Source: an uncultured Dehalococcoidia bacterium
Lineage (GTDB): Bacteria; Chloroflexota; Dehalococcoidia; DSTF01; JACRBR01
Assembly: GCA_964371355.1 (NCBI GenBank)
Contig: CAYJMG010000003.1
Coordinates: 89,351 to 153,350 of the forward strand
Reading direction: 5' to 3'
DNA length: 64,000 nt
Positions 4,567-62,227 of this stretch are shown here, piece after piece. Made by a program: the position numbers and the translations under genes. How positions within the stretch are numbered: the first letter of the stretch is position 1; each line of letters begins with the position of its first letter. Under the pieces are notes generated by a model that was given only the letters and a program-made list of their open reading frames with translations, was not told where the DNA came from and ran no database searches.

Positions 4567-4708
4567 GCTGGTGGTCCTTTCCGGGGATAGCGCGGTCTTT
4601 CCCAGTATAGACAGAGGGTTGGGCGACTGACGGCTCTGGAGGTCGCAGCCGGCGGTCTCCCCATGGCGACGCCGCGCGCGCCCCCGCCGCGCGCGGTACC
4701 CTTCGAGG

Positions 4709-4975: not shown

Positions 4976-5234
4976 CAACGCTGACTTGCCGCCTTGAGCC
5001 CAACGCGGAGCGCGTGAGGGCGCCAGCGCTCGATGACCGATGTCAACGGTGGCTTGCCCGCGCTGTAATGCGCGTCAAGTAACCGTGTTATCATCTTGGA
5101 CACTCGAAGATCTCGCCGAAGCTGTCGCCGGGTTGCGCGAAGCCGGACACCGCCGGACGCGCCGCCAACGCGAGCCCCCCGCCGCCCGCACGGCCACGAG
5201 AAGAGGTTCAGCGCACGTGGCAACGACGACCGCC

Positions 5235-23163: not shown

Positions 23164-23422
23164 GGTGGAGTCCTCCAGGCGGGCCGGGGGGCGCGCGTTG
23201 CTGCGTCTGGGGGTGGTAGCACCCGGGCGTCCCGCGGGGGCCGTCGCGGCTGCTGCTCCGGCGTGAGCATAGCAGGAACGCGCCGAACGCTCTCCCTAAT
23301 CAATGTCACGGATGCGCATAAGCGGCTGCCCGATGCAGGGGCAAACCCCCGGTTCCGATACTCACGTGGTTTCGCGCGCGGGCGGGCCGGATGGGGGAAA
23401 CCGCGCAAGCTTCGGGGGCCGG

Positions 23423-31935: not shown

Positions 31936-31983
31936 GGCGGCAGTGTAGGTGACCGAACGCCGGTGTCGGCCCGATGCTTGACG

Positions 31984-36058: not shown

Positions 36059-36094
36059 CGCCCTGCCACCGGTTCGCGCTCCGCGGCCTCAGCG

Positions 36095-37189: not shown

Positions 37190-38121
37190 CTGCGCGCCCT
37201 CGGCCCCGTGCGGCCCATTACCCCGGCTACAAGGCCCTCGACGCGACCCAGCGCCTCGGCCGGGTTCCCCTGCGCGAGCGCCTTCAGGCTCTCGTACGCG
37301 ACGAGCCCGGGCTGCGCGGCGAGCGCGGTGATGCGGCGGACGCCCCGGAGACCGCGCCGGACGAAGCGCAGCCGGTTGCGCGCGAAGTAGTACGCCTGCG
37401 CCCGTGTCAGCCGGTTCGAGCCGCGCACGCCAGCCGCGGCCGACACCATATGCCGCACCGCGGGCCCTGGCGCGAGCCAGCACTCGGATCCGGCGAGCCG
37501 CACGCGCTCGCACAGGTCAGCATCTTCAAAGTAGTGAAAGTACGCCTCATCGAGGCCGCCGAGCCGCTCGAAGGCTTCGCGGCGGATGGCGATGGCGGCG
37601 CCCGTGATGAAGTCAACGGCCGCCTCCGTGCGAGGCAGCTCACGCGCACGGAAGCCCATGTGCCGCGTGTAGCCCAGCCAGCGGTTCAAGCGCCCGCCGG
37701 CGAACCACACGCGGCCGGGGTCGTCCTCGTACACCACCGGCAGGCCGGCGACGGCCGCCCGTGGATGCGTCTCGAACAAGACGGCCACGGTCTCCAGCGT
37801 CCCCGGCTCGATGGCGACGTCGTTGTTCAGCAGCAGCACGGCCCCTGCCCCGGCCGCGAAGGCCCCGCGGGCGCCGGCGTTACACCCGGCGGCGTATCCG
37901 CCGTTTTCGGCCAGCCGCACGATGCGCACGCCCGGGCAGGCGGAACGCGCTGCGCCTTCGTCAAGGTCGCCCGGCCCGTTCTCCACGAGCACCACCGCAG
38001 CCGGCCCGCCCCCCGCGGCGGCGATGGAGCGCAGGCAGGCAAGCGTATCGGCGAAGCCGCGCCAGTGCACGACAACGATGCCGAAAGGACCTGGCACCCG
38101 GCCTGAGGCAGAATCGCTCAC
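37186..38121 (-). CDS. Glycosyltransferase family 2
   Basis: GT-A fold with GIVVVHWRG, LVENGPGD, a DxD-like NNDVAIEP, and FHYFEDADLC. Confidence 0.8.
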   Translation of the reverse strand: MSDSASGRVPGPFGIVVVHWRGFADTLACLRSIAAAGGGPAAVVLVENGPGDLDEGAARSACPGVRIVRLAENGGYAAGCNAGARGAFAAGAGAVLLLNNDVAIEPGTLETVAVLFETHPRAAVAGLPVVYEDDPGRVWFAGGRLNRWLGYTRHMGFRARELPRTEAAVDFITGAAIAIRREAFERLGGLDEAYFHYFEDADLCERVRLAGSECWLAPGPAVRHMVSAAAGVRGSNRLTRAQAYYFARNRLRFVRRGLRGVRRITALAAQPGLVAYESLKALAQGNPAEALGRVEGLVAGVMGRTGPRARR

Positions 38122-38179
38122 GCGGCGTTAGTATACGTGCGACCGACCTCGCCGCATCGTCGAAACGGGACGACAGGCC

Positions 38180-38977
38180 GTGGGCAGAGACTACACACGC
38201 TTCCTGGTGCTCGGCGAGGGGCGCACAGGGTCCAACCTCCTCGTCCAGGCGCTGAACTCTCACCCTAACGTCGTGTGCTATCGCGAAGTGTTCAATTGGA
38301 CGCACAAACGGATCGACTACAACGTCGAAGGCTATGAGGATCTGAGCCGCAAGGATGTCCGGTTTCGGGCCGATGACCCGTTGCGCCTACTGGACGAGCG
38401 CATCTTCCGTGACTACCCCGCGGATATCGCGGCCGTCGGCCTCAAACTCCACTACGGCCACGCGTTTGGCTTCGCGGGTGTTGAGGAGGCACTCATCGAG
38501 GATCAGGCGCTTCGCGTGGTGCACCTCAGACGGCAGAACATGCTCCGTACATTGGTCTCACTCCGCGTCGCCGAGCAAACCGGCGTGTGGGAGCATGACG
38601 AAGACGCCTCCTTGCGTGTCCGCCTACGGCGGCTGGCCGGACGAGTCTCCACCCGCGTGAAGTACGGTGACCCGGCGCGTGTGCGCCTGACCTACGAGCA
38701 GTGCAACCAGTTCTTCATCGTGCACGCTCTCCAGGGCCAGCGTTATGACGAGCTCTTCGCGGCACATCCGGTCCTGCAGGTCAGGTACGAAGACCTCGCG
38801 AAGAACCGGGACAGCGTCCTGGCCGGCGTGCAGCGCTTCCTTGGTGTCCCGTTCGTCGACCTGAAGGTAACGTTGCAGCGCCAGTCCCGGACGCCCTTGC
38901 GAGAAACGATCGTCAACTTCGACGAACTCCGGGCCGCCTTCGCCGGGACCAGTGCGGAGGCACTGTTCGATGAGTGA
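38180..38977 (+). CDS. Sulfotransferase (Stf0-like, PAPS-dependent), paralog 1
   Basis: N-terminal 5'-PSB-like P-loop FLVLGEGRTGSNLL and a 3'-PB-like region (VVHLRRQNMLRTLVS). Followed by a tandem paralog with an 8-nt overlap. Confidence 0.65.
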   Translation: MGRDYTRFLVLGEGRTGSNLLVQALNSHPNVVCYREVFNWTHKRIDYNVEGYEDLSRKDVRFRADDPLRLLDERIFRDYPADIAAVGLKLHYGHAFGFAGVEEALIEDQALRVVHLRRQNMLRTLVSLRVAEQTGVWEHDEDASLRVRLRRLAGRVSTRVKYGDPARVRLTYEQCNQFFIVHALQGQRYDELFAAHPVLQVRYEDLAKNRDSVLAGVQRFLGVPFVDLKVTLQRQSRTPLRETIVNFDELRAAFAGTSAEALFDE

Positions 38978-39815
38978 CGGCTACGTCCGCTTCATCATCA
39001 CGGGGGACGCGCGTACCGGGTCGACGATGCTGGCCCAGGCGCTCAACACAAATCCGGCCGTGCGGAGCCTTCGCGAGATCTTCCACCATTGGAAGGATTT
39101 CCTGGACTACGGGGTCGAAGGGTACGACCCGTTCGACACGGAAGCGCTGCGGCTTCGGAACGACGATCCCGTGCGCTTCCTGAGAGAACGGATCTTTTGC
39201 GGCTATCCCGAGCAGATCGGTGCGGTCGGCTTCAAGTACATCTACGGCCAGATGTGGGGATACGATGACTTGACGGACTTCCTCAAGAATGACGCCGAAC
39301 TCCACGTCATTCACCTGAAGCGCCGGAACTGGCTCCGCGCACTCGTATCCGTGCGGATCGCCGAGCTGTCAAGCCGCTGGCTGGATGACGAGAGCGCAAC
39401 GCCGCGGCGAAAGCGGCGCTTGCACGTGCGCGCGGCCTCCGCACTGCTGCATCCCCGGCGAGCGCTTGGTGACCTGAGGCGCCGGATCGCGCCGCCCCCA
39501 CCGGCGCCCAAACCCAGGCTCACGCTCACGCCCGAGGAGTGCGAACAGTGGTTCAAGCGGACTCAGTGGGAGGTCGGGCGGGTCGATGAGCTGTTCGCGC
39601 GCCAGCCCAGGCTCGATGTCTTCTTCGAGGACATGCTCGCCGACCGTGCCGGTGCGTTCTCGGCCGTGCAACGCTTTCTGGAGGTCGAACCAGTGGACCT
39701 GGCGGTGACTTCGCGGCGGCAGAATCCAGAGCCGCTGAGCGAACTCCTGACCAACCACGACGATCTGCGCGCGACGTTCACCGGCACCGATTTCGTCTCG
39801 TTCTTCGACGAATAG
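38970..39815 (+). CDS. Sulfotransferase (Stf0-like), paralog 2
   Basis: FIITGDARTGSTMLAQAL P-loop, VIHLKRRNWLRALVS, and a C-terminus (DELFARQP...FEDMLADR...VQRFLEV) co-linear with paralog 1. Confidence 0.65.
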   Translation: MSDGYVRFIITGDARTGSTMLAQALNTNPAVRSLREIFHHWKDFLDYGVEGYDPFDTEALRLRNDDPVRFLRERIFCGYPEQIGAVGFKYIYGQMWGYDDLTDFLKNDAELHVIHLKRRNWLRALVSVRIAELSSRWLDDESATPRRKRRLHVRAASALLHPRRALGDLRRRIAPPPPAPKPRLTLTPEECEQWFKRTQWEVGRVDELFARQPRLDVFFEDMLADRAGAFSAVQRFLEVEPVDLAVTSRRQNPEPLSELLTNHDDLRATFTGTDFVSFFDE

Positions 39816-39968
39816 CGCACCTCTGCTCGCGCTTAGCTCGCAAGTTGACGCCTTATCTGACTCGTCTCATTGACGAGGCACCGCGGGTGTGGTCTGATTG
39901 ACTCCCGCCCTGCTGTCGCGCCGCGTCCTGCTGCGCGCCGGCCGTCTGCGCTTTCAGGGGGAGTTCAC

Positions 39969-41747
39969 ATGGCAGGCCGGGTGGCGGCCCCGGCTCGGGA
40001 GCGAAGCACCGGCCCGGCGCCGCTCAACTGGGACGAGGCATCACCGTCCGCGATCGCGGACCTCGCGGCGCGCGCCCTCCGCTACTGGCCGCTCGCGCTC
40101 GTAGCCCTTGTGGCCGTGGCCAGCCGGCTGCGTTACATCGCGGGCTTCGACGGCGCGTACGGCTCCGGCGACGCGCACCTGCTGCTCACGAAGGCGCTCT
40201 TCATCGAGCGCGGCGACCTCCGCCCCGATGCGTCGCTGGGCGTGAGTTCCAACATCTTCGCCACGCCCCCGCTGGTCCCGATGCTGCTCGGCGGCTTCGC
40301 GCGCGTCACCACGGTCCCGGTCGATCACGCGCCTCTCATCCTGGGGCCGCTGGTCACCGTCGCCGGGCTGCTGGCGCTGTACGCCGTCGCAGCCCGCGCG
40401 TTCGATCGCACCGTGGCGATAGCGGGCGTGCTGCTGGTGGCACTGCTGCCGCGCTTCTCGTTCGACTCGACCGAGCCGGACAAGGTGGCATACGTCCTGA
40501 GCTTCTTCCTCATCGCGCTGTTCTTCCTGTACGAGGGGCAGCGACGGCCCGCACTGCTGCTGGCCGCGGGCGCGTTCATGGGGCTCAGCGTCTTCTCGCA
40601 CACGACGGCGTACCTGTTCCTGCCCGTGTACCTGCTGTCGCACGTGGCGCTCTCGCGCGGCCGCATGCGGAAGGTGCTCTCGCCGTACTTCCTGGCCTCC
40701 TGCGCGATCGTGCTGGCCTTCCTGGCCGCCTATTCCGCCCTCGACGCGCGCTTCGACCCGACGAGCGACACGACGGCGACCGGCGCGGCACTGGAGCCCG
40801 GCGCCGGCGCGGGCCGGCCGACAGAGGACGCCCGCCTCCCGGAGTCCACCCCTGCCGGGCGGACCCGCCGCTTCGTGCCCCAGGTCGTCGACGAGTACAT
40901 AGACAACGTGAGCAGGCTGGCGCGCGACGGCTTCCAGCGGAGCGCGGGCGACCTGTACCTCGACGGCATCCGCGCGCAGATCCTCGACCCCGTGTATGTG
41001 TTGGCGATCGGCGGATTCTGCGTCGCGGCGGCGCTGGCGCTGCTGCGGCGGCGGATGGAGGCGGTGCCGCTCCTGCTGTGGATGATGATCGTGACCGCCG
41101 GATTCGCCATGCAGTATCCCGCCGCCTCGCACACCAGCCGCTACCCCTCGTACGTCACGCCGGTGTTCCTGATCATGGCCACGTTCTTCGTGGTCTGGGC
41201 GGCTCGCCAGATCGCGGCGCGGGCCGGCGCGCGCGAGGCGATGGCACTGGCGCTGGCCGCGCCCTTCGTGGCCTACGCTGCCTTCTCGTACGTGACGGCG
41301 CCCGACCCGGGGCTGCGCAAGCTCTTCGCTGGCCACCACGAGCTAGCCGCCTACGTCTCCGACAACGATCTGCTAAGTGAGGATCGGCAGATCCTGTATC
41401 TGGGGTGGCCGTCGTTCACGTTCGGCCTCGCCAGGAGCGAGGCTGATGTCGATTGGCTGCACAGCTTCGGCTGGCGGCGCGTATCGCTGGCCGGGTACGA
41501 CGCCGACTATGTCGCCCAGAATAACGTCCGCTACTACGCCTACGACGACCTCACCGACGACTACTTCGGCTCGGCGAAGCAGGTGCTGGCAAACCTCCAG
41601 CGTGACTTCGAGATGCGTCCGGTGTTCACGTACTGCACCGCCGGCTCGGCGGCGTCGCACGCGGAGGCGGACGGCTGCGCCGGCCACGTCACGCTGTACG
41701 AAGTGGGCGCGCGGAAGGCGCAGCCGGCGGACGCCGTCACTCCTTGA
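39969..41747 (+). CDS. GT-C fold membrane glycosyltransferase (PMT/ArnT-like, polyprenyl-phosphate-sugar dependent)
   Basis: 593 aa from the ATG at 39969. About 11 transmembrane helices, with an early loop containing the DG/acidic motif (IAGFDGAYGSGDAHLL) typical of GT39/GT83-like enzymes, and a large C-terminal soluble domain. Confidence 0.6.
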   Translation: MAGRVAAPARERSTGPAPLNWDEASPSAIADLAARALRYWPLALVALVAVASRLRYIAGFDGAYGSGDAHLLLTKALFIERGDLRPDASLGVSSNIFATPPLVPMLLGGFARVTTVPVDHAPLILGPLVTVAGLLALYAVAARAFDRTVAIAGVLLVALLPRFSFDSTEPDKVAYVLSFFLIALFFLYEGQRRPALLLAAGAFMGLSVFSHTTAYLFLPVYLLSHVALSRGRMRKVLSPYFLASCAIVLAFLAAYSALDARFDPTSDTTATGAALEPGAGAGRPTEDARLPESTPAGRTRRFVPQVVDEYIDNVSRLARDGFQRSAGDLYLDGIRAQILDPVYVLAIGGFCVAAALALLRRRMEAVPLLLWMMIVTAGFAMQYPAASHTSRYPSYVTPVFLIMATFFVVWAARQIAARAGAREAMALALAAPFVAYAAFSYVTAPDPGLRKLFAGHHELAAYVSDNDLLSEDRQILYLGWPSFTFGLARSEADVDWLHSFGWRRVSLAGYDADYVAQNNVRYYAYDDLTDDYFGSAKQVLANLQRDFEMRPVFTYCTAGSAASHAEADGCAGHVTLYEVGARKAQPADAVTP

Positions 41748-42432
41748 TCGCCCGGAGCACGACGTAGACCTCCTCGACACCGACGAGCGGCCCCCAAAAG
41801 CGCTCGCAAGCGTACTGCCAGCCGCGGCCGCGGTTCGCCAGCGCGTGGAAGATGGGGTTCGCGCCGCGGCGCAGCACCCGGAACAGGTGGGGCTCGGGCG
41901 GCGGCAGGTCTTTCCGCGCCAACAACTCCGGCGGCAACGGCACGGGAGCGCCCTTCGCCGAGATACACAGCCGCGCGTGCTCTATCCGGAACCGCGCCGG
42001 GGAGTAGTACGAAAAGGCGACGCCGTCGAAGTAGGTGTCGTCGAAGTAAGTGAAGGTGGCGATCGAGAGGCCGCGCCGGTGCGTGGGGTCCTTCCAGGTG
42101 GTATACGGCGATGCGGCGTGCGGTCCCTTGATGTGCGCGACACCGCCGTGGCGCAGCACCCGCCAGATCTCGCCCACGGCGGCGAGGAAGTCGTCGACGT
42201 GCTCCAGCACGTGATACGCGTGCAGCACGTCGACACTGCCGTCGCGCAGCGGCAGGCCGCGTTCGAGATCACCAATGAGGTCGACACCGGGGATGCGGGC
42301 GGTATCGATGCCGATGGCGCCGGGAGTCTTGCGGCTGCCGCAGCCGACGTCGACGGTTACTGGCGGGCGGCCATCGCTGCGCGGTGACGGTGCGGGTGGG
42401 TGGCCGGGCGCCGGACGGGCGCGGGGGATCAT
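41737..42432 (-). CDS. Class I SAM-dependent methyltransferase (Methyltransf_11/23-like)
   Basis: VDVGCGSRK motif I, YHVLEHVDD, and RVLRHGGVAHI. Confidence 0.7.
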   Translation of the reverse strand: MIPRARPAPGHPPAPSPRSDGRPPVTVDVGCGSRKTPGAIGIDTARIPGVDLIGDLERGLPLRDGSVDVLHAYHVLEHVDDFLAAVGEIWRVLRHGGVAHIKGPHAASPYTTWKDPTHRRGLSIATFTYFDDTYFDGVAFSYYSPARFRIEHARLCISAKGAPVPLPPELLARKDLPPPEPHLFRVLRRGANPIFHALANRGRGWQYACERFWGPLVGVEEVYVVLRAIKE

Positions 42433-42435
42433 CGA

Positions 42436-43119
42436 CTAGTCCTTGATCGCCCGCAGTGTCAGCACCACCTCTTCGATACCTGCGAGCGGTCCCCAGAAGC
42501 GCTCGCAGGCGTACTGGTAGGAGCGGCTCTTGTTCGCCATCACGTCGAACACGCTGTTCAGCACACGCCGCGGAAGCCGGTACGAAGGCGCGTGCGCCTG
42601 GCGGTCGGTCAGCGTGAAGTTCAGCTTCGCCTTCTCGATGCGAAAGCGCGCGGGCGAGTAGTAATAGAAGGCAGCGCCGTCGAAGTACGTGTCGTCGAAG
42701 TACGCGAAGGTGGCGATCGAGAGCCCGCGCTTGTGCGTGGGGTCCTTCCAGGTGGTGAAGGTGGAGCACGCGTGCGGCGCCTTGATCCAGGCGCGGGCCC
42801 CGGGCTTCAGCACCCGCCAGATCTCACCCACGGCCGCCAGGAAGTCGTCGAGGTGCTCCAACACGTGGTAGGCGTAGATGCCGTCGAGGGAGCTGTCGCG
42901 GAACGGCAGACCGCGCGACATATCGGCGACGACGTCGACGCCCGGGACGGCGACGATGTCCATGCCGGTGGCGCCGCGCATCTTGCGGCTGCCGCACCCC
43001 AGGTCCACGACGTAACCCACGTACACCCCGCACAGGGCACCCGGGCGGCATGCCCCTTCTCTGTTCAACGCGCGCAGACCGCCAACGTTAAGGGAGCGCC
43101 CACGCTGGCTGAGCGCCAA
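42436..43119 (-). CDS. Class I SAM-dependent methyltransferase, tandem paralog of the previous gene
   Basis: VDLGCGSRK, YHVLEHLDD, and a C-terminus YQYACERFWGPLAGIEEV nearly identical to its neighbour. Confidence 0.7.
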   Translation of the reverse strand: MALSQRGRSLNVGGLRALNREGACRPGALCGVYVGYVVDLGCGSRKMRGATGMDIVAVPGVDVVADMSRGLPFRDSSLDGIYAYHVLEHLDDFLAAVGEIWRVLKPGARAWIKAPHACSTFTTWKDPTHKRGLSIATFAYFDDTYFDGAAFYYYSPARFRIEKAKLNFTLTDRQAHAPSYRLPRRVLNSVFDVMANKSRSYQYACERFWGPLAGIEEVVLTLRAIKD

Positions 43120-43292
43120 CCCTAACAGAGCGCCGCATTATACGGCCAGCGCGTCAAGAAGCTGCGCACCGCCCGCTGGGTCATCGGGCCGTTGACAGGC
43201 CGCCGGCCGGGGTGCGCGGCGGGCGCCCCGGGGGCGGTATCATCGGCCAACGGGCGGCGCCGATACTTATGCGTCCGGAACAAGGCGAAGGT

Positions 43293-44639
43293 ATGCGCCC
43301 GAACGTCAAGCAGTTCATCGAGTTACTGAGCCAGGCAACGGATCTGCCGCGGCCCATCGTCGATGTCGGCTCGATGTATGTCCTGGGCCAGGAGGCGTAC
43401 GCCAGCCTGCGCCCGTACTTCCCCGACTCACACTACGTGGGGCTCGACATGCGGCCCGGGCCGGGCGTCGACGCGCTGGGCAGCATCCACTACCTCCCGG
43501 TCCAGAGCGAAAGCGCGGGCACGCTGCTGGTGCTGGACACGCTGGAGCACGTCCTGGACCCGATCGCCTCTATGCAGGAGGTGTGCCGGGCCGTGCGACC
43601 GGGTGGCGTGGTCGTGATCTCGTCGCACATGAACTTCCCCGTACACACCCACCCCTCCGACTACTGGCGCTTCACGCCCATGGCCTTCGACTACCTGATG
43701 CGCCCGCTGGCCACCCGCTTCGTGTTCATGCAGGGCGACCCCGAGAACCCGCACAACGTGATGGCCGCCGGCATGAAGGCCTCGTCCGACGGCCACGCCG
43801 AAGCCGGCTTCCGCGCGGCGGTCCGCCAGGTTCAGGCGCGCTGGCCCGAGAACAGCTACGGCGGCCCGCTGGTGCAGAACGAGCCGCTCGTCATCGACCT
43901 GAGCCAGCGCGGCTGCGAGCGCGACCTGCCGGAGCTGGTGGCGGGCCGCACCATCGTGCAGCGCTTCACCTGCACGCGCGACGGACTCTCCCGCATCGAT
44001 GTGAAAATGGCGAACAAGATCGGCGAGAACTTCCGCCACGTCGTGTTCCGCCTGTTCGAGGCGGGGCACGTCGACCAACCGCTGACCTCGCACCGCGTGC
44101 TGGGCTGGCACGTGGAGGAAGACACGTGGCTCGCTGTGCCCGTGCCCGCGCAAGCGCGCTCGGCCGGCAAGACCTACGTCCTCACGGTGGAGTCGCCCGA
44201 CGGCGCCGCGGGCAACACCGTGAGTGCCAAGAGCAGTGCCCTCCCCGACGCGTACCCGGGCGGCGAGCTGCAGGTGGACGGCGCGACGATCCTCGGCGCG
44301 CTGGCCTTCCAGACCTACTGCTGGGGGCCCGAGGTCGCGGCCGGCGACGTGCAGACGGCCGAGGACATGCTCCAGCGCGCGCCCTCCGCCGCGGGCACGC
44401 TCGCGGCGATCGACGCGAAGCTGGCGGTACTGGCCGACGCTCAGTGGGCCCAGGTGCGCGCGCTGGCGGCCGAGCTACGCGCCGAGTTGGACGCGATGCG
44501 CGAGCAGATGCGACAGAACCATGCCTCGCTCATGGCGCTGGAAGAGCGGACGCTCGCTGCATCGACCGAGAAGCTGATTGCGCGCGCGGTGAAGGAAAAC
44601 CCGGTCGCACGGGCCCTGCGCCGCCCGCGCGGGCAATAG
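43293..44639 (+). CDS. Methyltransferase-domain protein with a C-terminal helical extension
   Basis: ATG at 43293 with an AAGGCGAAGG RBS. Methyltransf_11-like core (LVLDTLEHVLDP, VRPGGVVVISS). About 200 extra C-terminal residues end in a coiled-coil-like segment. Confidence 0.6.
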   Translation: MRPNVKQFIELLSQATDLPRPIVDVGSMYVLGQEAYASLRPYFPDSHYVGLDMRPGPGVDALGSIHYLPVQSESAGTLLVLDTLEHVLDPIASMQEVCRAVRPGGVVVISSHMNFPVHTHPSDYWRFTPMAFDYLMRPLATRFVFMQGDPENPHNVMAAGMKASSDGHAEAGFRAAVRQVQARWPENSYGGPLVQNEPLVIDLSQRGCERDLPELVAGRTIVQRFTCTRDGLSRIDVKMANKIGENFRHVVFRLFEAGHVDQPLTSHRVLGWHVEEDTWLAVPVPAQARSAGKTYVLTVESPDGAAGNTVSAKSSALPDAYPGGELQVDGATILGALAFQTYCWGPEVAAGDVQTAEDMLQRAPSAAGTLAAIDAKLAVLADAQWAQVRALAAELRAELDAMREQMRQNHASLMALEERTLAASTEKLIARAVKENPVARALRRPRGQ

Positions 44640-47121: not shown

Positions 47122-48978
47122 CTACGGGCACTGCCCCCCGGCTGAGATGATGACCGCCAGCGTGAGCTGGTCGCCCGCGTTCACGCCGCCGTCCTTGTTC
47201 ACATCGAAGCTCACCAGGCGCAAGCTCGGCGAGGGCTCGCGCAGGATCTCCTGCAGCATCAGGAGCTGGTCGCCGGCGTTCACAACGCGGTCGTTGTTCA
47301 GCGACGCCGCCTCGCACCCGTCCTTCGTCGGTCCCGGGTTGGGCGAGCCGTCCAGGTCGGCGTCCGTGTCGGCGTCGTTCGGGTCCGTGTTGTAGCCGCA
47401 GACCTCGGCGCGGTCAGGGATGTGGTCGCCGTCGCTGTCGGCGCTCGAGCCGCAGGCTGCGGCCGTCGGCTTGCTGGCCGCGCTGGCCGGGTTCGTGCCC
47501 AGGACGCACTCCGGGCCGTCCAGCACGCGGTCGCCGTCCGTGTCGCGATCCGTCGCGCCCAGCGGCCCGCTGCCGTTGCACCCCGCGGCCTCGTTCGCGT
47601 CCAGGATGCCGTCGTTGTCGTCGTCTGTATCGCAGGCGTCGCCGGCGGCGTCGCTGTTCGGCCACGAGCGGTCGTCCTGCGTCGAGGGAGGCGTCTGGTC
47701 GATGAAGTTCCGGTCCGCGTTCTCCTGGCCCGGGTTCGGGTCGGCCGGACAGTTGTCCACGCTGTCGACAACGCCGTCGCCATCGCTGTCCCCAACGGAG
47801 ACGATGCGCTGAATCGTCCCGCCGAAGTAGTCGGCGACGTACACCTCGCCCCCGCTGTCCTCGCCGAAGCTGCTGATCAGGAACGGAGCCGTCAGCTCCT
47901 CAGCATAGGACCACGTAGGACTGCCCGGCGTCGCGCTCCAGATCTTGCCCGAGCAGAAGTCGCCAAAGACGTACCTCCCCGCGATCGACGGTACCTGCGA
48001 GCCGCGGTACCGGAACCCGCCCGTAATCGAGCACTCCCCGGCGCCGTGCGCGTACTCGATGATGGGCGCCGTGAACGATGGGTCGCCGCAACCGGGTGGG
48101 TCGCCGGGCGTATAGCACGACGTGCCCTCCATGATCCGCCAGCCGTAGTTCGCCCCGCCCGCCGCGCCGGCCGCCTGGAAGTCGACTTCCTCGCGCGAGT
48201 ATTGCCCCACGTCGCCGATGAGCAGGTCGCCCGTCGTACGGTCGAAGCTGAACCTCCACGGGTTGCGCAGACCGTACGCCCAGATCTCGTCGCGCCCCGG
48301 AGTCGCCCCGGCGAAGGGGTTACCGGGCGGGATGCCGTGATAGGGCGGCTGGTTCACCTCCTGGTCCACATCGAGTCGCAGGATCTTGCCGAGCAGTACG
48401 TTCAAGTTCTGCGCGTTGTTCGCCGGATCACCCACACTCCCGCCATCGCCGACCGCGATGTACAGGTAGCCGTCCGGCCCGAATGCGAGCTGGCCACCGT
48501 AGTGGTTGTCGTTCGTCGGGTGCGGGATCGTCAGCAGCGGCACGCCCGATCCCGCGTCGGCGATATCCGGATTCGCGGACACGCTGTAGCGCCTGATCGC
48601 GATGTCGCCGGATGCATTCACGTAGTGGATGAAGAAGTACGGCGTCGCCGGATAGTCCGGATGGAACGCCAGCCCCAGCAACCCCTCCTCTTGCGCAGGC
48701 GACGACGGCAGCAGCGACGACACGTCGAGGAATGACGTCGCCAGGATCGCGCCCGCATCGTAGATCTTGATCCGCCCGCCCCTCTCGATGATGAACAGCC
48801 GCGTGTCACCCGCGTGCGCCAACCCCAGCGGAGAACTGAGGCCGGTGGCGCCCGCAAGCGGCTGCAGCGCGATGGTGCCTGCGGCGCTGACCGGCGCGGT
48901 TTCATGACGCCGCGCCTGCACTCCCAGTACGAGTGCGACGGCGCCAAGTGCGAGGCAAAGGGGGACCAGTCGTGTCAC
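47122..48978 (-). CDS. Secreted PQQ-dependent sugar dehydrogenase (GSDH/sorbosone-DH-like beta-propeller) with TSP3 repeats and a C-terminal dockerin-like domain
   Basis: Signal peptide after the GTG at 48978. GSDH motifs (GLLGLAFHPDY, YGLRNPWRFSFD). Ca-binding TSP3-type D.D.DG.xD repeats. Two 22-residue dockerin-type repeats (LNNDRVVNAGDQLLM; FDVNKDGGVNAGDQL). Start position is uncertain (the track's ATG at 49095 is the alternative). Confidence 0.8.
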   Translation of the reverse strand: MTRLVPLCLALGAVALVLGVQARRHETAPVSAAGTIALQPLAGATGLSSPLGLAHAGDTRLFIIERGGRIKIYDAGAILATSFLDVSSLLPSSPAQEEGLLGLAFHPDYPATPYFFIHYVNASGDIAIRRYSVSANPDIADAGSGVPLLTIPHPTNDNHYGGQLAFGPDGYLYIAVGDGGSVGDPANNAQNLNVLLGKILRLDVDQEVNQPPYHGIPPGNPFAGATPGRDEIWAYGLRNPWRFSFDRTTGDLLIGDVGQYSREEVDFQAAGAAGGANYGWRIMEGTSCYTPGDPPGCGDPSFTAPIIEYAHGAGECSITGGFRYRGSQVPSIAGRYVFGDFCSGKIWSATPGSPTWSYAEELTAPFLISSFGEDSGGEVYVADYFGGTIQRIVSVGDSDGDGVVDSVDNCPADPNPGQENADRNFIDQTPPSTQDDRSWPNSDAAGDACDTDDDNDGILDANEAAGCNGSGPLGATDRDTDGDRVLDGPECVLGTNPASAASKPTAAACGSSADSDGDHIPDRAEVCGYNTDPNDADTDADLDGSPNPGPTKDGCEAASLNNDRVVNAGDQLLMLQEILREPSPSLRLVSFDVNKDGGVNAGDQLTLAVIISAGGQCP

Positions 48979-49130
48979 GCGGAGGCCACTCCCATCATGC
49001 GGCGTGTGTCGTATGTGGCGGGGGAGGCCCGGAGGCCGCGGCCAGTATAGCCGGTCAATGATGACGGACACGTAAACATTTCCGTGGTCGCGCATGCGCC
49101 ACGAGTTAGATGCTGTGCAATTTCCAGCCC

Positions 49131-49235
49131 GGCACTCTTACGGACACTGCCCCGTGGGCGAGATGAACTGCGCGGGCAGCAGCTGGTCGCCGGCGTCCAC
49201 CGCCCCGTCCCTGTCCACGTCGAAGATCACCAGTC
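49131..49235 (-). pseudogene. Orphan 3' fragment of a dockerin-like module (third copy; gene remnant)
   Basis: The minus strand encodes ...RRLVIFDVDRDGAVDAGDQLLPAQFISPTGQCP* ending at the TAA (49131-49133). It is co-linear at DNA level with the 3' ends of the genes at 47122 and 50617. The upstream reading frame has no propeller or TSP3 similarity. Confidence 0.45.
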
Positions 49236-49310
49236 GCCGCGCTTCCGGCGCCGCTTCGAGGCCGCCGCCTTCGTGACCGTGCGCGTCTGCGCCTGCACGA
49301 CGGTCTCCGC

Positions 49311-49700
49311 CTACTCGATCGCATCGAGCCTGTCGAGCAGCCAGCCTGCGCCGTGCACCGCCGCGCCCAGCCTACCGGCGCGGTCCGCGAGCACACGGTC
49401 GGAAGTGACGACCTCGAGAGAGGCTGGCTCGGCGTGCGCGCGGACGTACTCGACGATGCGGTCGTCGGCTGCGTTCCGGCCAGGGCGCGCGGCGTAGTAC
49501 ACGCCCACGCCGCCGTGCTCGCCCTCGGGCACGTCATCCAGAGGCCGGCCGTCGACAAACAGGCTCACGTCGAGGTCGCCGTGCGCCGCCAGCCGTTGCA
49601 GTTTCGCCAGCAGCCCGCGCACCGCGCCGTCGCGGTCGCGCCACCACCCGGTCGGCCGCGATCCGATCACGTTCATCGCATCGACGACGATGTGTGCCAC
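49311..49700 (-). CDS. YacP-like NYN domain protein
   Basis: IVVDAMNVIGSRP, ADDRIVEY, and VVTSDRVLADRAGRLGA parallel the B. subtilis YacP/Rae1 NYN motifs. Confidence 0.7.
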   Translation of the reverse strand: MAHIVVDAMNVIGSRPTGWWRDRDGAVRGLLAKLQRLAAHGDLDVSLFVDGRPLDDVPEGEHGGVGVYYAARPGRNAADDRIVEYVRAHAEPASLEVVTSDRVLADRAGRLGAAVHGAGWLLDRLDAIE

Positions 49701-49733
49701 GTTGCAGGATACCGATGAGCAGCAGGGGGGTGG

Positions 49734-50405
49734 CTACCGCAGCTCGAAGTCGTCCGACACGCGGTCCAGCGCATCGAGCGAGTACAACCGGTCGTACATC
49801 ACGCTACGGGGGTCGGTCGACATCGCGAGACCGAGGTGGAGCACCCCGATGTTCTTGCCCACCATCTTCGCTGCACGCAGGAAGAGCAGGTCATCGTCCC
49901 GCCGCTCCCCGAAGTTCACCGGGTCCATCCGGGCGACAGATACGACCGCCGTGTTCGTCGAGATGTCCCGTAGAGAGAACACGAAGTTCCAGTCGGGCTT
50001 GTCCAGCATGTACATGTCGTGGTCGGTGACGGCGATGAGGACGTCGCCGGCATTCTCCGCCGGCCGGGCGGCCTCCATCACCTCCAGCACGCGGTCGGCC
50101 ACCAGTTGGCGCCGCTCCTCGTCGAACATCGACCGGTCGACGGGAAGCGCCGGCAACACGCCGACGTTGACTGCGTGCGTGTCGCGGAAGTAGGCCTGCA
50201 GCCCCTCCATCATGTCCTCGGAGATTTCGTCGACCGGCACCAGGTACACATCCGCGCTGCCCGTGAACGCGACCGCCTCGACCGGCGCCCGCGTCGCCGC
50301 GGGAGAAGGAGCCGCCGCCTCGCGCCCAGGCGACGCCTTGTCGCCGCCCAGGCACGCCGAGCCCAATAGCAGCGTCGCGAAGAGTGCCAGCCACAAAGAT
50401 CGCAT
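49734..50405 (-). CDS. Hypothetical secreted protein / lipoprotein
   Basis: ATG at 50405 gives the signal peptide MRSLWLALFATLLLGSACLGG. No recognisable catalytic motif. The track ORF extends 38 codons further upstream. Confidence 0.45.
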   Translation of the reverse strand: MRSLWLALFATLLLGSACLGGDKASPGREAAAPSPAATRAPVEAVAFTGSADVYLVPVDEISEDMMEGLQAYFRDTHAVNVGVLPALPVDRSMFDEERRQLVADRVLEVMEAARPAENAGDVLIAVTDHDMYMLDKPDWNFVFSLRDISTNTAVVSVARMDPVNFGERRDDDLLFLRAAKMVGKNIGVLHLGLAMSTDPRSVMYDRLYSLDALDRVSDDFELR

Positions 50406-50616
50406 CAGTCGAAGTATCGGCGACCGCCGAACGCGAGTGAAGGGGCGACGCGAAAGGGCCGTCAGGGATCGGTATGGAGCGCGGGCGCCCTCGCCCGCGG
50501 CCGCAGCGCATTGCTCCACCCCTGCGGGAGGTCACCCTGCCCCATCACTGCACGTCACCCTTGGGCCCTCCCCCACTGTCGGGAGAGAATCATCCGGCCA
50601 GGCGCTGGCGCTCCGA

Positions 50617-52617
50617 TCACGGACACTGCCCCGAGGGCGAGATGAACTGCGCGATCAGGAGCTGGTCGCCAGCGTTGACGGCGCCGTCCTTGTTGATGTC
50701 GTAGCTCACTAGCCGCATCGACGGTGTCAGCTCCCGCAGGATCTCCAGGACCATCAGCAGCTGATCGCCCGCATTCACCACGCGGTCACCGTTCAACGAC
50801 GCCGCCTCGCACCCGTCCTTCGCACCGTCCAGCGCCATGTCACCGTCGGTGTCGGCGATGTTCGGATTGGTGTTGTACCCGCAGAACTCGGTACGGGCGC
50901 TCAGGCGGTCGCCGTCGACATCCGTCGTCGGCCCGCACTGCGCGGGGGTGGGCTTGCTCGCGCTCGATGTGGGGTCCGTCGCCAACACACACTCCACACC
51001 GTCGAGGATGCGGTCGCCGTCGGAGTCACGCAGGAGCGGATCGGTGACCTTCCCGCCACAGAAGGCGCCGGTGCCTTCGTCGGCGTCGCTGATGCCGTCG
51101 TTGTCGTCGTCGGTGTCGCACTCGTCACCCAGCGCGTCCGACTTCGGCCACGTCTTGTCGTCCTGCGTCGTCGGCGGCGTGCTGTCGATGAAATTACCGT
51201 CGGTGTTCACCTGATCGGCGTTCGGGAGGCCAACGCAATTGTCGTAATCCAAGTTGGTATTTGAGGGACCTTCGTGGAGTGACGCAGTACAGTCACGCGT
51301 TGCATCTCCATCCAAGTCCCCGGCGTTAGACGTGCAGTAGCGGATTAAGGGGACATCCGCCCCAACATTGGCCCAAACGAATACATCACCTAAGCCATCC
51401 GCGCCGACCCACATCCCGCCGTCATGTAGCTCTTCAGCCCCCGGATGAGTCTGTTCCCACCGCATTGAGCCGTCTGGAGCGTAAGCTCTTGTCACAACCT
51501 CAGCGCCACTCTGTGCGATCAGAATCACTCCGTAGGGATCGGACGCCAGAAGGGTCGTATTGCCCTTGAGCGGACTCGCGATGGTCATGGGCGCAAGATC
51601 GTGACGCCATGACTGATTTCCAGCCGCATCGTATCGCAGCACTCCGATTGTTTGAGACGCTAAGCCAAGCGCCTCATACACCCCTCCGGCGCCGTCGTGG
51701 ACAATTTCGATCGGGCTGCCATCACCCGAAACACGATTCCAATCTTTTCCGCAGGATGAGTTGTACTTCACAGTTCGGTTGAGACCCCCCGGATGAACCA
51801 GTCCTGTCACAATTGCACCGCCACTGGGAAGGGCTATTAGGCGATCCGGGCCGCCACCCTCGTTGTTCGTGTTATTGTCGAAGCTATCGGTACAGATTGG
51901 GTTGCCGGCTGAGTCATAGATTGAAACGAACCAATCCGGGCCACTGGATGCAGCTGAACTGACGCCGACGTAGACACGACCAATCGCATCTACGCCGATG
52001 TCGGCCGGGTTGTCGTGGTCCGATGTGAGATCTAAATCGCGTTGCCACTGGAACGAACCGGACGCATCGTACTTGCGTATAACGCTGTACCTGTGTGACC
52101 CAGGCTGGGTGGTTCCGAGAACGTACACGTTGTCCGAACTATCGGTACTAATCGCTGACCCAAAGTCAGCCGCCGAGTTATTCCACATCTGGCTCCACAG
52201 TAGGTTCCCGTTGCTATCGTATTTGGAGACGTACCAGTCGGTTGGAGTGAAGGTATTCGGATCACCAGCTGTCCCGACAATCCAGAAGTATTGCTCGCTC
52301 ATGGCGAACTCGAAGTCAGTCATATACAGAGCAGCGCAAGGAGACGCACAAGGGTCGTTCAAACTCGTCCAAAGTAATGCACCATCTCGCGAGTACTTCC
52401 TTATGCCCTCGGACGGCATCTGATAGGCGGCGTAAGACGCCACGTAAACGTGTCCACTTGAATCCACCGCGCCAAACCCACCATTTGTCCACGGAGTGCC
52501 GGGGAGCATCCTTTGCCAGTCGAACGCAGCGACTTCGGCCTGTATCTGGCCCGGTGAGACGAACAAGAGAGTAGTGAGGATCACAAAGCTCGAGACGAGG
52601 CGAAGGTGGTTGCTCAT
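50617..52617 (-). CDS. Secreted beta-propeller-repeat protein with TSP3 repeats and a C-terminal dockerin-like domain (paralog of the 47122 gene in its C-terminal half)
   Basis: Signal peptide MSNHLRLVSSFVILTTLLFVSPGQIQA, repeated YV.G-type beta-propeller blades, TSP3 D.D.DG repeats, and a dockerin-like end (LNGDRVVNAGDQLLMV; YDINKDGAVNAGDQLL...GQCP). The N-terminal about 1.4 kb is markedly lower in GC than the surroundings. Confidence 0.75.
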   Translation of the reverse strand: MSNHLRLVSSFVILTTLLFVSPGQIQAEVAAFDWQRMLPGTPWTNGGFGAVDSSGHVYVASYAAYQMPSEGIRKYSRDGALLWTSLNDPCASPCAALYMTDFEFAMSEQYFWIVGTAGDPNTFTPTDWYVSKYDSNGNLLWSQMWNNSAADFGSAISTDSSDNVYVLGTTQPGSHRYSVIRKYDASGSFQWQRDLDLTSDHDNPADIGVDAIGRVYVGVSSAASSGPDWFVSIYDSAGNPICTDSFDNNTNNEGGGPDRLIALPSGGAIVTGLVHPGGLNRTVKYNSSCGKDWNRVSGDGSPIEIVHDGAGGVYEALGLASQTIGVLRYDAAGNQSWRHDLAPMTIASPLKGNTTLLASDPYGVILIAQSGAEVVTRAYAPDGSMRWEQTHPGAEELHDGGMWVGADGLGDVFVWANVGADVPLIRYCTSNAGDLDGDATRDCTASLHEGPSNTNLDYDNCVGLPNADQVNTDGNFIDSTPPTTQDDKTWPKSDALGDECDTDDDNDGISDADEGTGAFCGGKVTDPLLRDSDGDRILDGVECVLATDPTSSASKPTPAQCGPTTDVDGDRLSARTEFCGYNTNPNIADTDGDMALDGAKDGCEAASLNGDRVVNAGDQLLMVLEILRELTPSMRLVSYDINKDGAVNAGDQLLIAQFISPSGQCP

Positions 52618-60215: not shown

Positions 60216-60683
60216 ATGCGTAAGAAGCAAGAGCGAGGCGAACTCGGCCAGGGACTGGTCGAGTTCGCCATCGTTTTCCCTCTGCTGGTCTTCTTCCTGT
60301 TCGCGATCGTCGAAGCCGGTCTCGGCTTTCAGCGCCAGGCTACGCTCCAGCACGCCGTCCGCGAGGGCGCGAGGTATGGCGCCCTCCGCGACAACGCCGA
60401 CGTAGGGGCGTATGTGCAACAGCGGACCAGCGATCAGTCGCACGGACTAGTCGAACTCAACGACGTTGTGATCTGCTTTACCGACATGGACGGTGACACC
60501 CAGATCGGAGCGGGGGACGCCATCGATGTGCAGGTGATCTACGCGTACCAGCCCAGCTTCCTGAAGAGCGCCGCGGGCCTTTTCGGGGCCATCGTCCCAA
60601 GCTCGTTCACCATCGACGTAACCGGCAGCGCGCGTCTTGAGGTAGCGCTGGACGACCCCAACCCCGGGAACATTTGCTCATGA
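60216..60683 (+). CDS. tadE: TadE/TadG-like pilus assembly protein (pseudopilin)
   Basis: N-terminal GQGLVEFAIVFPLLVFFLFAIVEAG TadE-like helix (PF07811 pattern). Confidence 0.75.
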   Translation: MRKKQERGELGQGLVEFAIVFPLLVFFLFAIVEAGLGFQRQATLQHAVREGARYGALRDNADVGAYVQQRTSDQSHGLVELNDVVICFTDMDGDTQIGAGDAIDVQVIYAYQPSFLKSAAGLFGAIVPSSFTIDVTGSARLEVALDDPNPGNICS

Positions 60684-62134
60684 ATGGGTCGGCCTCCGTT
60701 CGTCATCTCACGAAACTTGTGCACGCGGACGAGCGCGGGCAGGTGTTCATCATCTTCACGGCGGTGATCACGGTCATCATGGCCGCCGCTGTGATCGGCA
60801 TCGACTACAGCATGTGGCTCAGCGAGCGTCGCGGCATCGCCCGGGCCGCCGATCTGGCAGCGCTCGCTGCAATCAGGGACCTCCCCGCCGATCCAGTGGT
60901 CGATACCGTGTACACCGAAGGAGCCTGCGACACCGATGCTTGCACGGCGGTCTACGACTGGGCTGGCCGCAACGGGTACGGTGAGCTGGACAACGCAGAC
61001 GTCCGCGTTGCCTACTTCTGCAGCAACACCATCGCCTTTCCGCCGGATGGGTTCTGCAAGAACGAGCAGCGCAGTGACCCCGTGCTCCCGATCAGTCCTT
61101 GTCCATCCGAAGCCGGTGAGGTCGGTTGCGATTCCGTCCGCGTTTCGATTCAGAAGGAGGCGGTCAACCTGTTCGGCGCCTTCTTCGGCGGCATCAACTT
61201 CGACGTAGGGTACACGTCCTTCGCCCGCGTCTCGTTCCGCATCGCCCCGTTGGACACGGTGATGTCCATCGACGCCAGCGGCAGCATGGACAATGGGTGC
61301 AGCCCGGCGCAAGATAACGTCGGTTGTCCGATCCGTGAAGCGCGGAAAGCGGCGAATGACTTCGTTACGATCCTGCTGGGAGACGATCCCGATGAAGGGA
61401 ACGTGCAGGTCGGGTATGCGCCCTACCGCGCGTGCTACAACCCGCCAAGCGGGGCGGGCTCCTGCGTGCCATCTTTAGGCATAGACGCAACCGATTGCGG
61501 TAACCCACCATCGTCGTCTTGGGTGCTCTGCCTCGGCAAAGACCCAGACTTGCTCCGCAACAGATTCGCCGCGACGATGCCGGGCTCATCCACGAACGTG
61601 TGCCTGGGGATGTTTGAATCCGGCGAGATCCTGGCCGGGCCCGGGATGAATCAGAATCCTGAGGCTCAACGCTTCCTGGTCCTACTGACGGACGGGGAGA
61701 ACTACTACCCGGTCGACCCGGATGCCCAGGCTGAGCTCCAACTGCCTCCGGACTGCATCCCAAACAACCAGAACAGCAACAACAACTTCGACTGCGACGA
61801 TGCACCCAGCCCGGCTGAACGCGGTCTCGACACCAAGACGATGGAGATGGCGGACGACCTGAAGGCTCAGGGCGTCGAGATCTACGTCGTGGGCCTTAAC
61901 GTCTGTGATATCGAGGACGGGACGATATGGGACGTCAATCCCGGCTTCTGCAATGCCATCGGGAACGGTCAGGATGACGATGTCGCGAACCGGCGACTGC
62001 TAAAGTGCATCGCGTCCTCGAATCCGGGTACCAACGACCACTACAACGAAGCGAACGCCATAGACCTCGGCGACATCTTCCAGGGTGTGGCGTATGAAAT
62101 CGCCGGGCGCGGCCTTTCGACGGAACCTCCCTGA
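60674..62134 (+). CDS. tadG: TadG-like pilus assembly protein with vWA domain
   Basis: N-terminal Tad_N-like helix (ERGQVFIIFTAVITVIMAAAVIGIDYSMW). vWA MIDAS residues (MSIDASGSM ... LLTDGENY). Confidence 0.75.
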   Translation: MLMNGSASVRHLTKLVHADERGQVFIIFTAVITVIMAAAVIGIDYSMWLSERRGIARAADLAALAAIRDLPADPVVDTVYTEGACDTDACTAVYDWAGRNGYGELDNADVRVAYFCSNTIAFPPDGFCKNEQRSDPVLPISPCPSEAGEVGCDSVRVSIQKEAVNLFGAFFGGINFDVGYTSFARVSFRIAPLDTVMSIDASGSMDNGCSPAQDNVGCPIREARKAANDFVTILLGDDPDEGNVQVGYAPYRACYNPPSGAGSCVPSLGIDATDCGNPPSSSWVLCLGKDPDLLRNRFAATMPGSSTNVCLGMFESGEILAGPGMNQNPEAQRFLVLLTDGENYYPVDPDAQAELQLPPDCIPNNQNSNNNFDCDDAPSPAERGLDTKTMEMADDLKAQGVEIYVVGLNVCDIEDGTIWDVNPGFCNAIGNGQDDDVANRRLLKCIASSNPGTNDHYNEANAIDLGDIFQGVAYEIAGRGLSTEPP

Positions 62135-62227
62135 GGCGGCGGCTCCGGCTTCGGCCGCAGGCCGGCCTGATACGGAGGGGCGGCGCGCCTCGTTGACAGT
62201 AGAGACGGGATAGTAAGGACAGGATCA

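Follow-up and report, generated by a model that had tools for sequence, protein, structure and literature searches.

The 64 000-nucleotide stretch of DNA considered here (the window; GC content, approximately 68%) comes from an uncultured Dehalococcoidia bacterium, and a 5.5 kb interval within it (positions 47122-52617) raises the question of what one and the same C-terminal module is doing behind two different exported proteins, and of how an orphan piece of that module came to lie between their genes. An earlier analysis limited to the letters of the DNA (the sequence-only reading) had placed two minus-strand genes in the interval, with differing N-terminal domains and near-identical 3' ends, and had proposed the ongoing shuffling of a dockerin-like cassette. 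The listing of the open reading frames (ORFs) bears out the two long minus-strand genes, here named A and B (table 1). Their common tail is, as judged by hidden Markov models (HMMs), profile matches to Protein Data Bank (PDB) sequences and the predicted fold, a thrombospondin type-3 (TSP3) region followed by a canonical two-repeat dockerin. The best explanation, to which we assign a probability of roughly 0.55, is that both genes encode exported passengers with a constant tail docking to a cohesin-type partner, and that the orphan piece is what is left of a third gene.

The shared TSP3-dockerin tail

Homology between the two products is confined to the C-terminal approximately 220 residues (57% identity, approx. 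270 aligned positions, E 8e-75 in BLASTP), where D-rich TSP3-type repeats are followed by two 22-residue EF-hand-like segments (SLNGDRVVNAGD and DINKDGAVNAGD, each continued by a helix) and by a terminal GQCP, all elements that the sequence-only reading had listed. Both tails exceed the Dockerin_1 (PF00404) cut-off of 22.9 bits (29.9 bits for A, 30.9 bits for B), which agrees with the expectation formulated initially; TSP_3 (cut-off, 25 bits) is matched by the tail of A with 32.6 bits and not by that of B at E ≤ 1, and many other members of the family exceed the TSP_3 cut-off. A family profile built from 73 sequences recovered from the PDB the type-3 repeats of COMP (1.8e-20) and thrombospondin-2 (1e-13), a bacterial OmpA-family chain (5wtl, E 7.5e-9) and several dockerins (1ohz_B with 1.8e-9, 2y3n_B, 2ccl_B, 4fl4_A and others; range 1.8e-9 to 1e-6). 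By taking into account the score of A and the match of the B-inclusive profile to COMP, the tail is assigned by sequence similarity to the TSP3 repeat family (PF02412 TSP_3, PF18884 TSP3_bac). Pfam and NCBIfam hold no model for the composite TSP3-dockerin unit.

The family consensus reads DxDxDGxxDxxDNCPxxxNPxQxNxDxNFIDxxPPxxxDDxTxPNSDxxGDACDxDDDNDGLxDxxE...C...DTDGDRxLDGAECxLGTDPxxxxSKP...C... in its N-terminal part and DxDGDxxxDxxExCxYNTxPxxxDTDGD...DGCExASLNGDRxVNSxDQ...DxNKDGxxNSxDQ...GxCP in its C-terminal part, with a TSP3 core of the form DNCPxxxNxxQxNxD...GDACDxDDDNDG. Eight Cys residues are conserved, C19, C58 and C78 (module numbering) being invariant or nearly so, while C119 and C137 are both present in 42 tails, both missing in 15 and found singly in 1. 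The co-occurrence of the latter fits a sequential pattern of disulfides, so that the pairs are probably 19-58, 78-101, 119-137 and 161-223, as far as residue conservation can tell. In both dockerin repeats of the 73 sequences, loop positions 1, 3, 5, 9 and 12 are conserved, with an invariant D12, and the two repeats are nearly equal in the profile at positions 9-17 (N-S/A-G-D-Q-L-L-x-A). The residues by which characterized type I dockerins contact the cohesin fall within this stretch, and the internal symmetry of those dockerins is the basis of a dual binding mode.

The AlphaFold2 model of the tail of B, calculated with the 73-sequence alignment, has a mean predicted local distance difference test score (pLDDT) of 88.7 and a predicted template modelling score (pTM) of 0.85. 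Such a confident single model suggests one compact unit, not beads on a string. The prediction has helices at residues 174-186 and 207-217 of the module, and the three-dimensional fold of a dockerin is found in the predicted structure.

Table 1. Features of the interval, in window coordinates.
Feature	Position	Strand	Basis or remarks
Gene A, secreted GSDH-family six-bladed propeller with C-terminal TSP3-dockerin module	47122..48978	-	618 residues from GTG 48978 (likely start)
Gene A passenger, GSDH (HHIP-like/PQQ-sugar-dehydrogenase-type) beta-propeller	47926..48840	-	Pfam PF07995, residues 86-390 of the 657-residue frame
Gene A C-terminal module, Cys-containing TSP3-type repeats, then dockerin, GQCP end	47125..47790	-	approx. 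222 residues; module HMM, 271 bits
Gene A dockerin proper, last 65 residues	47125..47319	-	Dockerin_1 at residues 599-646 of the 657-residue frame
Orphan piece of a third module: second dockerin repeat (final 32 codons) and stop	49138..49237	-	translation, blastn, HMM
YacP-type NYN-domain gene	49311-49700		
Archaemetzincin-like gene	49734-50519	-	261 residues, lipobox-like N-terminus (LLLGSAC)
Gene B, secreted beta-propeller of SBBP repeats, C-terminal module as in gene A	50617..52617	-	ORF of 666 residues
Gene B C-terminal module, TSP3-type repeats and dockerin	50620..51285	-	222 residues; GC3, 0.86
Gene B dockerin proper, last 65 residues (DGCEA...GQCP), two 22-residue EF-hand repeats, Cys-flanked	50620..50814	-	
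Composition junction in gene B (approximate)	51150..51290	-	GC3 change-point, 50-codon blocks
Gene B passenger, SBBP-type repeats	51286..52536	-	homologues with PF06739; DNA GC approx. 0.55, GC3 0.61

The passengers of genes A and B

That the N-terminal domains differ, as initially read, is confirmed. The passenger of gene A scores 134.6 bits with PF07995 (cut-off, 25 bits; E 6.5e-39) and matches in the PDB HHIP (5e-35) and the bacterial PQQ sugar dehydrogenases 2ISM (1.8e-22), 3A9G (6e-21) and 2G8S (1e-16), so that by HMM and PDB similarity it is assigned to the GSDH/soluble PQQ-dependent sugar dehydrogenase family. The score of only 57 bits with TIGR03606, whose cut-off is 434, places it outside that subfamily. 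The first in-frame ATG, at 49095, would give a frame of 657 residues (47122-49095); the GTG at 48978, from which the public gene calls start, is likely the actual start. The N-terminus is hydrophobic and signal-like (MTRLVPLCLALGAVALVLGVQA).

Gene B also begins with a signal-peptide-like sequence (MSNHLRLVSSFVILTTLLFVSPGQIQA). The scores of its N-terminal 445 residues are below the Pfam cut-offs (17.4 against 20.5 for SBBP, PF06739; 21.9 against 27.6 for PQQ_2), as is the match to the LipL53-type SBBP model of NCBIfam (E 2.3e-11), and the passenger is read as SBBP-type, in line with the sequence-only reading, from its homologues, nearly all 96 of which contain PF06739 (E down to 1e-33; best identity, approx. 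35%). The AlphaFold2 model of full-length B, obtained with a mixed alignment, has a pLDDT of 53, a low confidence that makes it too poor to judge the fold. SBBP homologues from other lineages bear PEP-CTERM, type IX secretion system (T9SS) C-terminal domain (CTD), peptidoglycan-binding or dockerin domains, all known to serve in surface anchoring or sorting, which suggests the tail as a surface-retention device, with the proviso that the positions of these domains in the homologues were not checked.

The two parts of gene B differ in composition. The GC content at third codon positions (GC3) is 0.61 for codons 1-444 and 0.86 for the tail, compared with 0.84 and 0.94 for the corresponding parts of gene A and 0.85-0.92 for typical genes of the window. 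A two-segment likelihood scan sets the break at codon 475 (approx. 51192; GC3 0.61 to the left and 0.90 to the right), close to the beginning of the module near codon 445-458. The likelihood ratio test (LRT) value of 59.1 is the highest among 20 long genes of the window, the other high values being artefacts of over-extended 5' ends. Such a mosaic composition suggests a past fusion. The public call for gene B (P0001, found in 24 contigs) has 323 residues and starts from Met344, leaving the first 343 codons (GC3 approx. 0.6) uncalled. The frame is intact in the independent contigs L001 and L002 and in the variant P0201, a full 666-residue call from one ENA contig with a single substitution; the foreign composition of this DNA is likely to have led the gene caller to reject it.

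Age of the copies and the orphan fragment

The 3' ends of genes A and B had been described as near-identical. Alignment of the three 3' ends does reveal nucleotide similarity (71-83%), at a level well short of near-identity: A and B share 79% of the last 204 nucleotides and 71-75% in three blocks further upstream, and the Nei-Gojobori estimates over the dockerin codons are 0.55 for synonymous (dS) and 0.18 for nonsynonymous (dN) divergence, the dS values between A and B ranging from 0.48 to 0.55. For the three local copies compared in pairs, dS is 0.40-0.55 and dN/dS 0.32-0.45. As far as these distances tell, the copies are old paralogues, and the dS values argue against the ongoing shuffling proposed initially, as does the conservation of the gene A architecture in relatives: the contig L003 carries an orthologue with 77% DNA identity, and the combination of GSDH and tail is kept there and in two more distant Dehalococcoidia metagenome-assembled genomes (MAGs; L007, L008).

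The third copy reported by the sequence-only reading is real, truncated and devoid of upstream homology; only its limits had to be corrected (49138-49237 instead of 49131-49235). A module profile HMM run on the six-frame translation of the window finds exactly three copies, namely A, B and the fragment, which covers HMM positions 170-207 of 207 (E 2e-8). Its translation, RLVIFDVDRDGAVDAGDQLLPAQFISPTGQCP followed by the stop, corresponds to DNA that over 98 nucleotides is 83% identical to B (blastn E 1.6e-22) and 76% identical to A (7.5e-14), with a stretch of 33/34 nucleotides shared with the 3' end of B; in the three-way alignment the similarity stops sharply at approximately 100 nucleotides from the stop codon. 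The only ORF over the fragment has 30 residues from a GTG and is without a signal peptide, and in the last dockerin helix a helix-breaking Pro is found where B and A have Ile/Leu. The fragment lies 73 nucleotides downstream of the NYN stop codon and approximately 160 nucleotides upstream of the start of gene A, in the region where the synteny with L003 (gene A, FabF, DinB, TfoX) breaks, just upstream of the coding region of A; at the matching position L003 has a GGDEF-EAL gene. From the 30-residue ORF and the position at the synteny break, the fragment is read as a pseudogene relic, the decaying remnant of a third tail-bearing gene. In the simplest reading a rearrangement, located immediately upstream of gene A, would have truncated this gene and spared only its last 32 codons. 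The protein P0200 (36 residues, from the gene B cluster) was considered as a call for the fragment and found to be unrelated. Fragment and gene A stand in one frame (47125-49137 and 49141-49371), split only by the fragment's TAA at 49138-49140; this is probably a coincidence, with a one-in-three chance.

A large family of tails in Chloroflexota

A word-indexed search with the tail of B yielded 103 relatives, nearly all unnamed metagenomic or Chloroflexi-MAG proteins. When 1.84 billion representatives were searched exhaustively with the profile, 17 572 matches were found at E ≤ 1e-3, 3786 at 1e-10 and 617 at 1e-30; family clusters were counted at 50% identity, and 617 is a lower bound on the family size. 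In most of the best 150, a single match spans the module from end to end and is located at the extreme C-terminus of a protein of 400-1500 residues. Among 94 fetched members whose sequence extends to the module end, the protein ends no more than 17 residues past the module in 93 and exactly at ...CP in 56. In the GTDB representative genomes the complete module was recovered only from Chloroflexota/Dehalococcoidia MAGs, the matches in other phyla being to the TSP3 part only; the source labels of the relatives are those of Chloroflexi or Dehalococcoidia MAGs, with a groundwater origin for several.

The passengers are diverse. Propeller and repeat proteins include GSDH (A, L003, L007 and L008), SBBP, NHL/teneurin-NHL, FG-GAP and a Vgb-lyase-like propeller; among enzymes there are subtilase, M23 peptidase, penicillin amidase, the beta-lactamase fold and alpha/beta-hydrolase; beta-helix/NosD, CARDB and cohesin domains complete the list, and no cellulase was seen. 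Cohesin and tail are found in one protein in P0076 (PF00963, E 1.3e-11) and P0079 (7.8e-9), while in P0104 a cohesin is joined to a short dockerin flanked by Cys. The tails closest to that of B (76-78% identity) follow other passengers. The initial idea of a module carried by different secreted proteins is borne out by this diversity and by the GC3 step in gene B, and sequence comparison supports the view of the tail as a portable module, the same behind many unrelated passengers.

Dehalococcoidia MAGs often have at least two copies of the module, sometimes in tandem. Tail genes are adjacent in L006 (2-229 and 338-3355) and in L009 (3-1994, minus strand, and 3768-6443), an adjacency that suggests, as in the window, a local clustering of genes bearing the tail. 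A further member, at 117-2273 of L004 (MAG NC_groundwater_1625, JACRBR010000007.1), has 718 residues with two Cys-rich domains of approximately 200 residues, Pro/Thr linkers and the tail. A likeness of the repeated domain to cohesin, noted by eye, was discarded as no signal was obtained in Pfam, in BLASTP against P0076 or among PDB sequences; the domain has no match in Pfam or the PDB.

Docking module or not: weighing the explanations

According to the docking explanation, the products of genes A and B would be exported by the Sec system, each consisting of a variable passenger (GSDH/PQQ-sugar-dehydrogenase-like or SBBP propeller) and the constant tail of approximately 220 residues. After export, the tail would take up Ca2+ at the two EF-hand loops and at no fewer than five TSP3 sites, and about four disulfides would lock it, with 161-223 clasping both ends of the dockerin. 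The TSP3 stretch would serve as a rigid calcium-dependent spacer and the dockerin would bind a partner of cohesin type, whose gene would lie in another part of the genome, thereby retaining the passengers at the cell surface or within a complex of several proteins that has nothing to do with cellulose breakdown. In favour of this proposal are the domain identity of the tail, its conserved calcium ligands and Cys residues, the signal-like N-termini, the modularity of the family, the analogy with the anchoring and sorting domains of SBBP homologues and the cohesins present in the family. Several observations weigh against it. The disulfides and the calcium loading are derived from the sequence and from an ion-free model; the first dockerin loop has Ser in position 1 and Arg in position 6, and so does not strictly follow the DxNxDG pattern initially attributed to both segments; and Foldseek comparison of the tail model with the PDB gave weak matches (E > 0.1). 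No match to cohesin PF00963 was found in Pfam scans of approximately 50 ORFs of the window, nor did a cohesin HMM (P0076, P0079, P0104) find any in the whole window or in 34 fetched loci. Given the lack of a cohesin partner in the window, docking and display are only what we infer. Furthermore, just three cohesin-bearing proteins (P0076, P0079 and P0104) were recovered compared with hundreds bearing the dockerin tail, a word-indexed search with the cohesin domain of P0076 returning a single match. Finally, in a minority of members (P0291, P0218, P0242, P0270, P0284, P0288, P0312 and P0329) the module is internal, as in CARDB-module-CARDB, or N-terminal and followed by FG-GAP and ASPIC/UnbV, so that it is not strictly a C-terminal tag or anchor.

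The tail could instead be a calcium-dependent adhesion or stabilizing module that works independently of cohesin, by binding the cell's own envelope (S-layer, glycan, possibly a sulfated polysaccharide), an extracellular matrix or mineral surfaces, or by rigidifying and protecting secreted proteins. In this possible, if doubtful, alternative the role would be of the kind attributed to the TSP3-bearing Myxococcus proteins MtsC (annotated for cell-cell cohesion) and CglD (a gliding-motility lipoprotein), which are the best NCBIfam TSP3 matches of the tail, though far below the cut-offs. The missing cohesins and the excess of dockerin-tail proteins over the three cohesin-bearing ones speak for it, as do the prediction of all 220 residues as one compact unit (pTM 0.85) and not as a linker plus dockerin, the internal position of the module in some members and the presence of a glycosyltransferase/sulfotransferase/PMT_2 envelope-glycan cluster at 30.6-44.6 kb. 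However, the dockerin keeps its full two-repeat architecture, and helix positions 10-17 are conserved alike in its two repeats, a symmetry typical of a protein-binding face and not readily accounted for by calcium binding only; proteins with both cohesin and tail do exist in the family, and no carbohydrate-binding signature was found. Far less credit can be given to a secretion or sorting signal like the T9SS CTD or PEP-CTERM, recognized and removed by a dedicated machinery. The nearly constant location at the extreme C-terminus, the conserved terminal C-P and the SBBP homologues of other phyla with T9SS CTD or PEP-CTERM, normally C-terminal tags, would agree with it, but the tail, with 220 residues and many calcium sites, is far larger than known sorting tags, its predicted fold is that of a dockerin, the module is internal or N-terminal in some proteins, and A and B already have Sec-type signal peptides. 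A sortase or PEP-CTERM-type signal was specifically rejected since nothing hydrophobic follows the terminal Cys-Pro, there being no transmembrane helix or sortase-type motif past the conserved Cys.

The origin of the arrangement, as distinct from the function of the tail, could be sought in an active cassette system in which tails are now being recombined onto propellers, with the fragment as donor or intermediate. The crowding of three copies into 5.5 kb, the GC3 step at the module boundary of gene B, the different passengers of the closest relatives of its tail and the 33/34 nucleotides that the fragment shares with it speak for such a system. It is nevertheless improbable, although somewhat less so than the sorting signal, by taking into account that the copies have diverged to 71-83% DNA identity (dS 0.40-0.55), that no mobile-element genes or flanking recombination repeats were found at the locus, that the architecture of gene A is conserved in L003, L007 and L008, and that the fragment is a lone piece with a helix-breaking Pro and without upstream homology. 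In addition, the independently assembled contig L001 is 99.992% identical to the window over 13 kb and 21 more contigs with gene B have similar gene neighbourhoods, so that no population-level variation is seen. The 99.99% identity also indicates that the locus is not an assembly artefact, and together with the blastn E-values it rules out chance or misassembly as the source of the three copies.

Comparison with known systems

Type I dockerins, as those of Clostridium thermocellum Xyn10B (1OHZ/2CCL) and C. cellulolyticum Cel5A (2VN5), belong to cellulolytic Firmicutes, whereas the present tail is found in Chloroflexota, is not carried by glycoside hydrolases and has no scaffoldin or cohesin nearby. 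It also differs in being Cys-flanked (DGCE..., ...QCP) and permanently fused to a TSP3 region, in having A/S-G instead of S-T at positions 10/11 and in a first loop that starts with Ser. The hallmarks of a cellulosome, namely dockerins on plant-cell-wall glycoside hydrolases and a scaffoldin bearing a carbohydrate-binding module, are not found here. Dockerin- and cohesin-like modules are said to have been surveyed across the three domains of life by Peer et al. in 2009. Among non-cellulosomal systems, freshwater Planctomycetes have been proposed to possess a 'planctosome' that comprises cohesin, dockerin and TSP3 repeats (PMC6461901), and Saccharophagus degradans has TSP3 repeats on secreted glucanases as well as dockerin-like ORFs (PMC2386152). 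In both of these, and for C. perfringens NagH/NagJ (2OZN), a candidate or proven cohesin has been identified, in contrast to the sequence available here, where none was found.

In TSP3 repeats, regular secondary structure is scarce and the chain is stabilized by Ca2+ and disulfides. The tail shares with the type 3 repeats of thrombospondin and COMP (1UX6, 1YO8, 3FBY) and with the OmpA-type protein (5WTL) the pattern DxDxDGxxDxxDNCPxxxNxxQxNxD...GDxCDxDDDNDG including its Cys residues, but it has only about five repeats, one of which is split by a conserved insert (FIDxxPPxxxDDKTWPNSD), and it continues into a dockerin and not into a lectin-like C-terminal or OmpA domain. Dai et al. (2017; cited in 10.1101/2023.11.21.568195) announce intra-repeat disulfide-dependent Ca2+ binding in their title. 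The giant proteins of Omnitrophota, predicted to be extracellular, combine dockerin/EF-hand and bacterial TSP3 repeats (10.1101/2023.11.21.568195); they exceed 30 000 residues with very many repeats, whereas here a single compact tail is borne by enzymes and propellers of ordinary size. For the dockerin of Ruminococcus flavefaciens ScaA an intramolecular clasp has been described (PMC3821032), the idea being that joining its N- and C-terminal ends gives stability. The likeness lies in ends that are held together, which in the tail would be by the Cys residues of DGC and QCP, a disulfide clasp suggested by their conservation. No paper on this 220-residue TSP3-dockerin tail, or on how it is distributed among Chloroflexota, turned up in the searches made.

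Genomic context

Between genes A and B lie two small genes, one of the YacP-type with an NYN domain and one archaemetzincin-like (table 1). The product of the latter matches the archaemetzincin model NF033823 with E 8e-20 and 71.5 bits, below the cut-off of 145, and has no Pfam match; as judged from the sequence, a metzincin-like protein that is secreted or lipid-anchored is a possibility. The interval is flanked by housekeeping genes for a FabF-like ketoacyl synthase, DinB, TfoX, Lon and CvpA. A promoter and terminator scan from 46.9 to 53 kb found nothing exceeding the shuffle expectation. The remark that the organism has no obvious cellulosome holds for the locus: no cellulolytic gene was found near it, the sole glycoside hydrolase in the window being a GH3 without dockerin.

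Elsewhere in the window, an ORF of 2453 codons on the plus strand (23303-30664) encodes at least 10 PAS domains followed by GGDEF, GAF and HD-GYP-type HD_5, an unusually large cyclic-di-GMP signalling protein. It is followed at 30637-44639 by genes for four GT1/GT4 glycosyltransferases, two PMT_2 mannosyltransferase-like membrane proteins and several methyltransferases, with two sulfotransferase-like genes at 38180-39815. The gene content of this cluster resembles that of a locus for envelope glycans or protein glycosylation, whose product may be sulfated. Near the end of the window (60216-63052) there are Tad/Flp pilus genes (TadE, TadG-like, RcpC/CpaB), present in L001 too.

Concluding remarks

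The locus is one more instance of non-cellulosomal dockerin-bearing secreted proteins and, because the tail is common in Chloroflexota, a fairly ordinary case of a putative docking module of this kind. Two things stand out most, how large the unnamed tail family of Chloroflexota is and the chimeric nature of gene B. The family, with no fewer than 617 clusters (50% identity), goes under the annotation 'hypothetical protein', and gene B illustrates how gene callers drop compositionally foreign passengers (323 instead of 666 residues).

A more far-reaching idea, which we put forward only tentatively, is that of a hitherto undescribed, phylum-wide cohesin-dockerin surface-assembly system in Chloroflexota of groundwater and soil lineages, Dehalococcoidia included. 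The tail would be its docking half, by which hundreds of secreted passengers would be plugged onto cohesin-bearing partners; partners with both cohesin and tail could form chains, and the tail could act as a grafting unit for horizontally acquired passengers such as the low-GC propeller of gene B. If the tail docks on cohesins, many Chloroflexota would possess a calcium-dependent plug-in for surface redox enzymes, peptidases and binding propellers. Chloroflexota are abundant and poorly understood in soils, sediments and groundwater, and such a docking system, if true, would alter the reading of their secretomes and of how they interact with their substrates.

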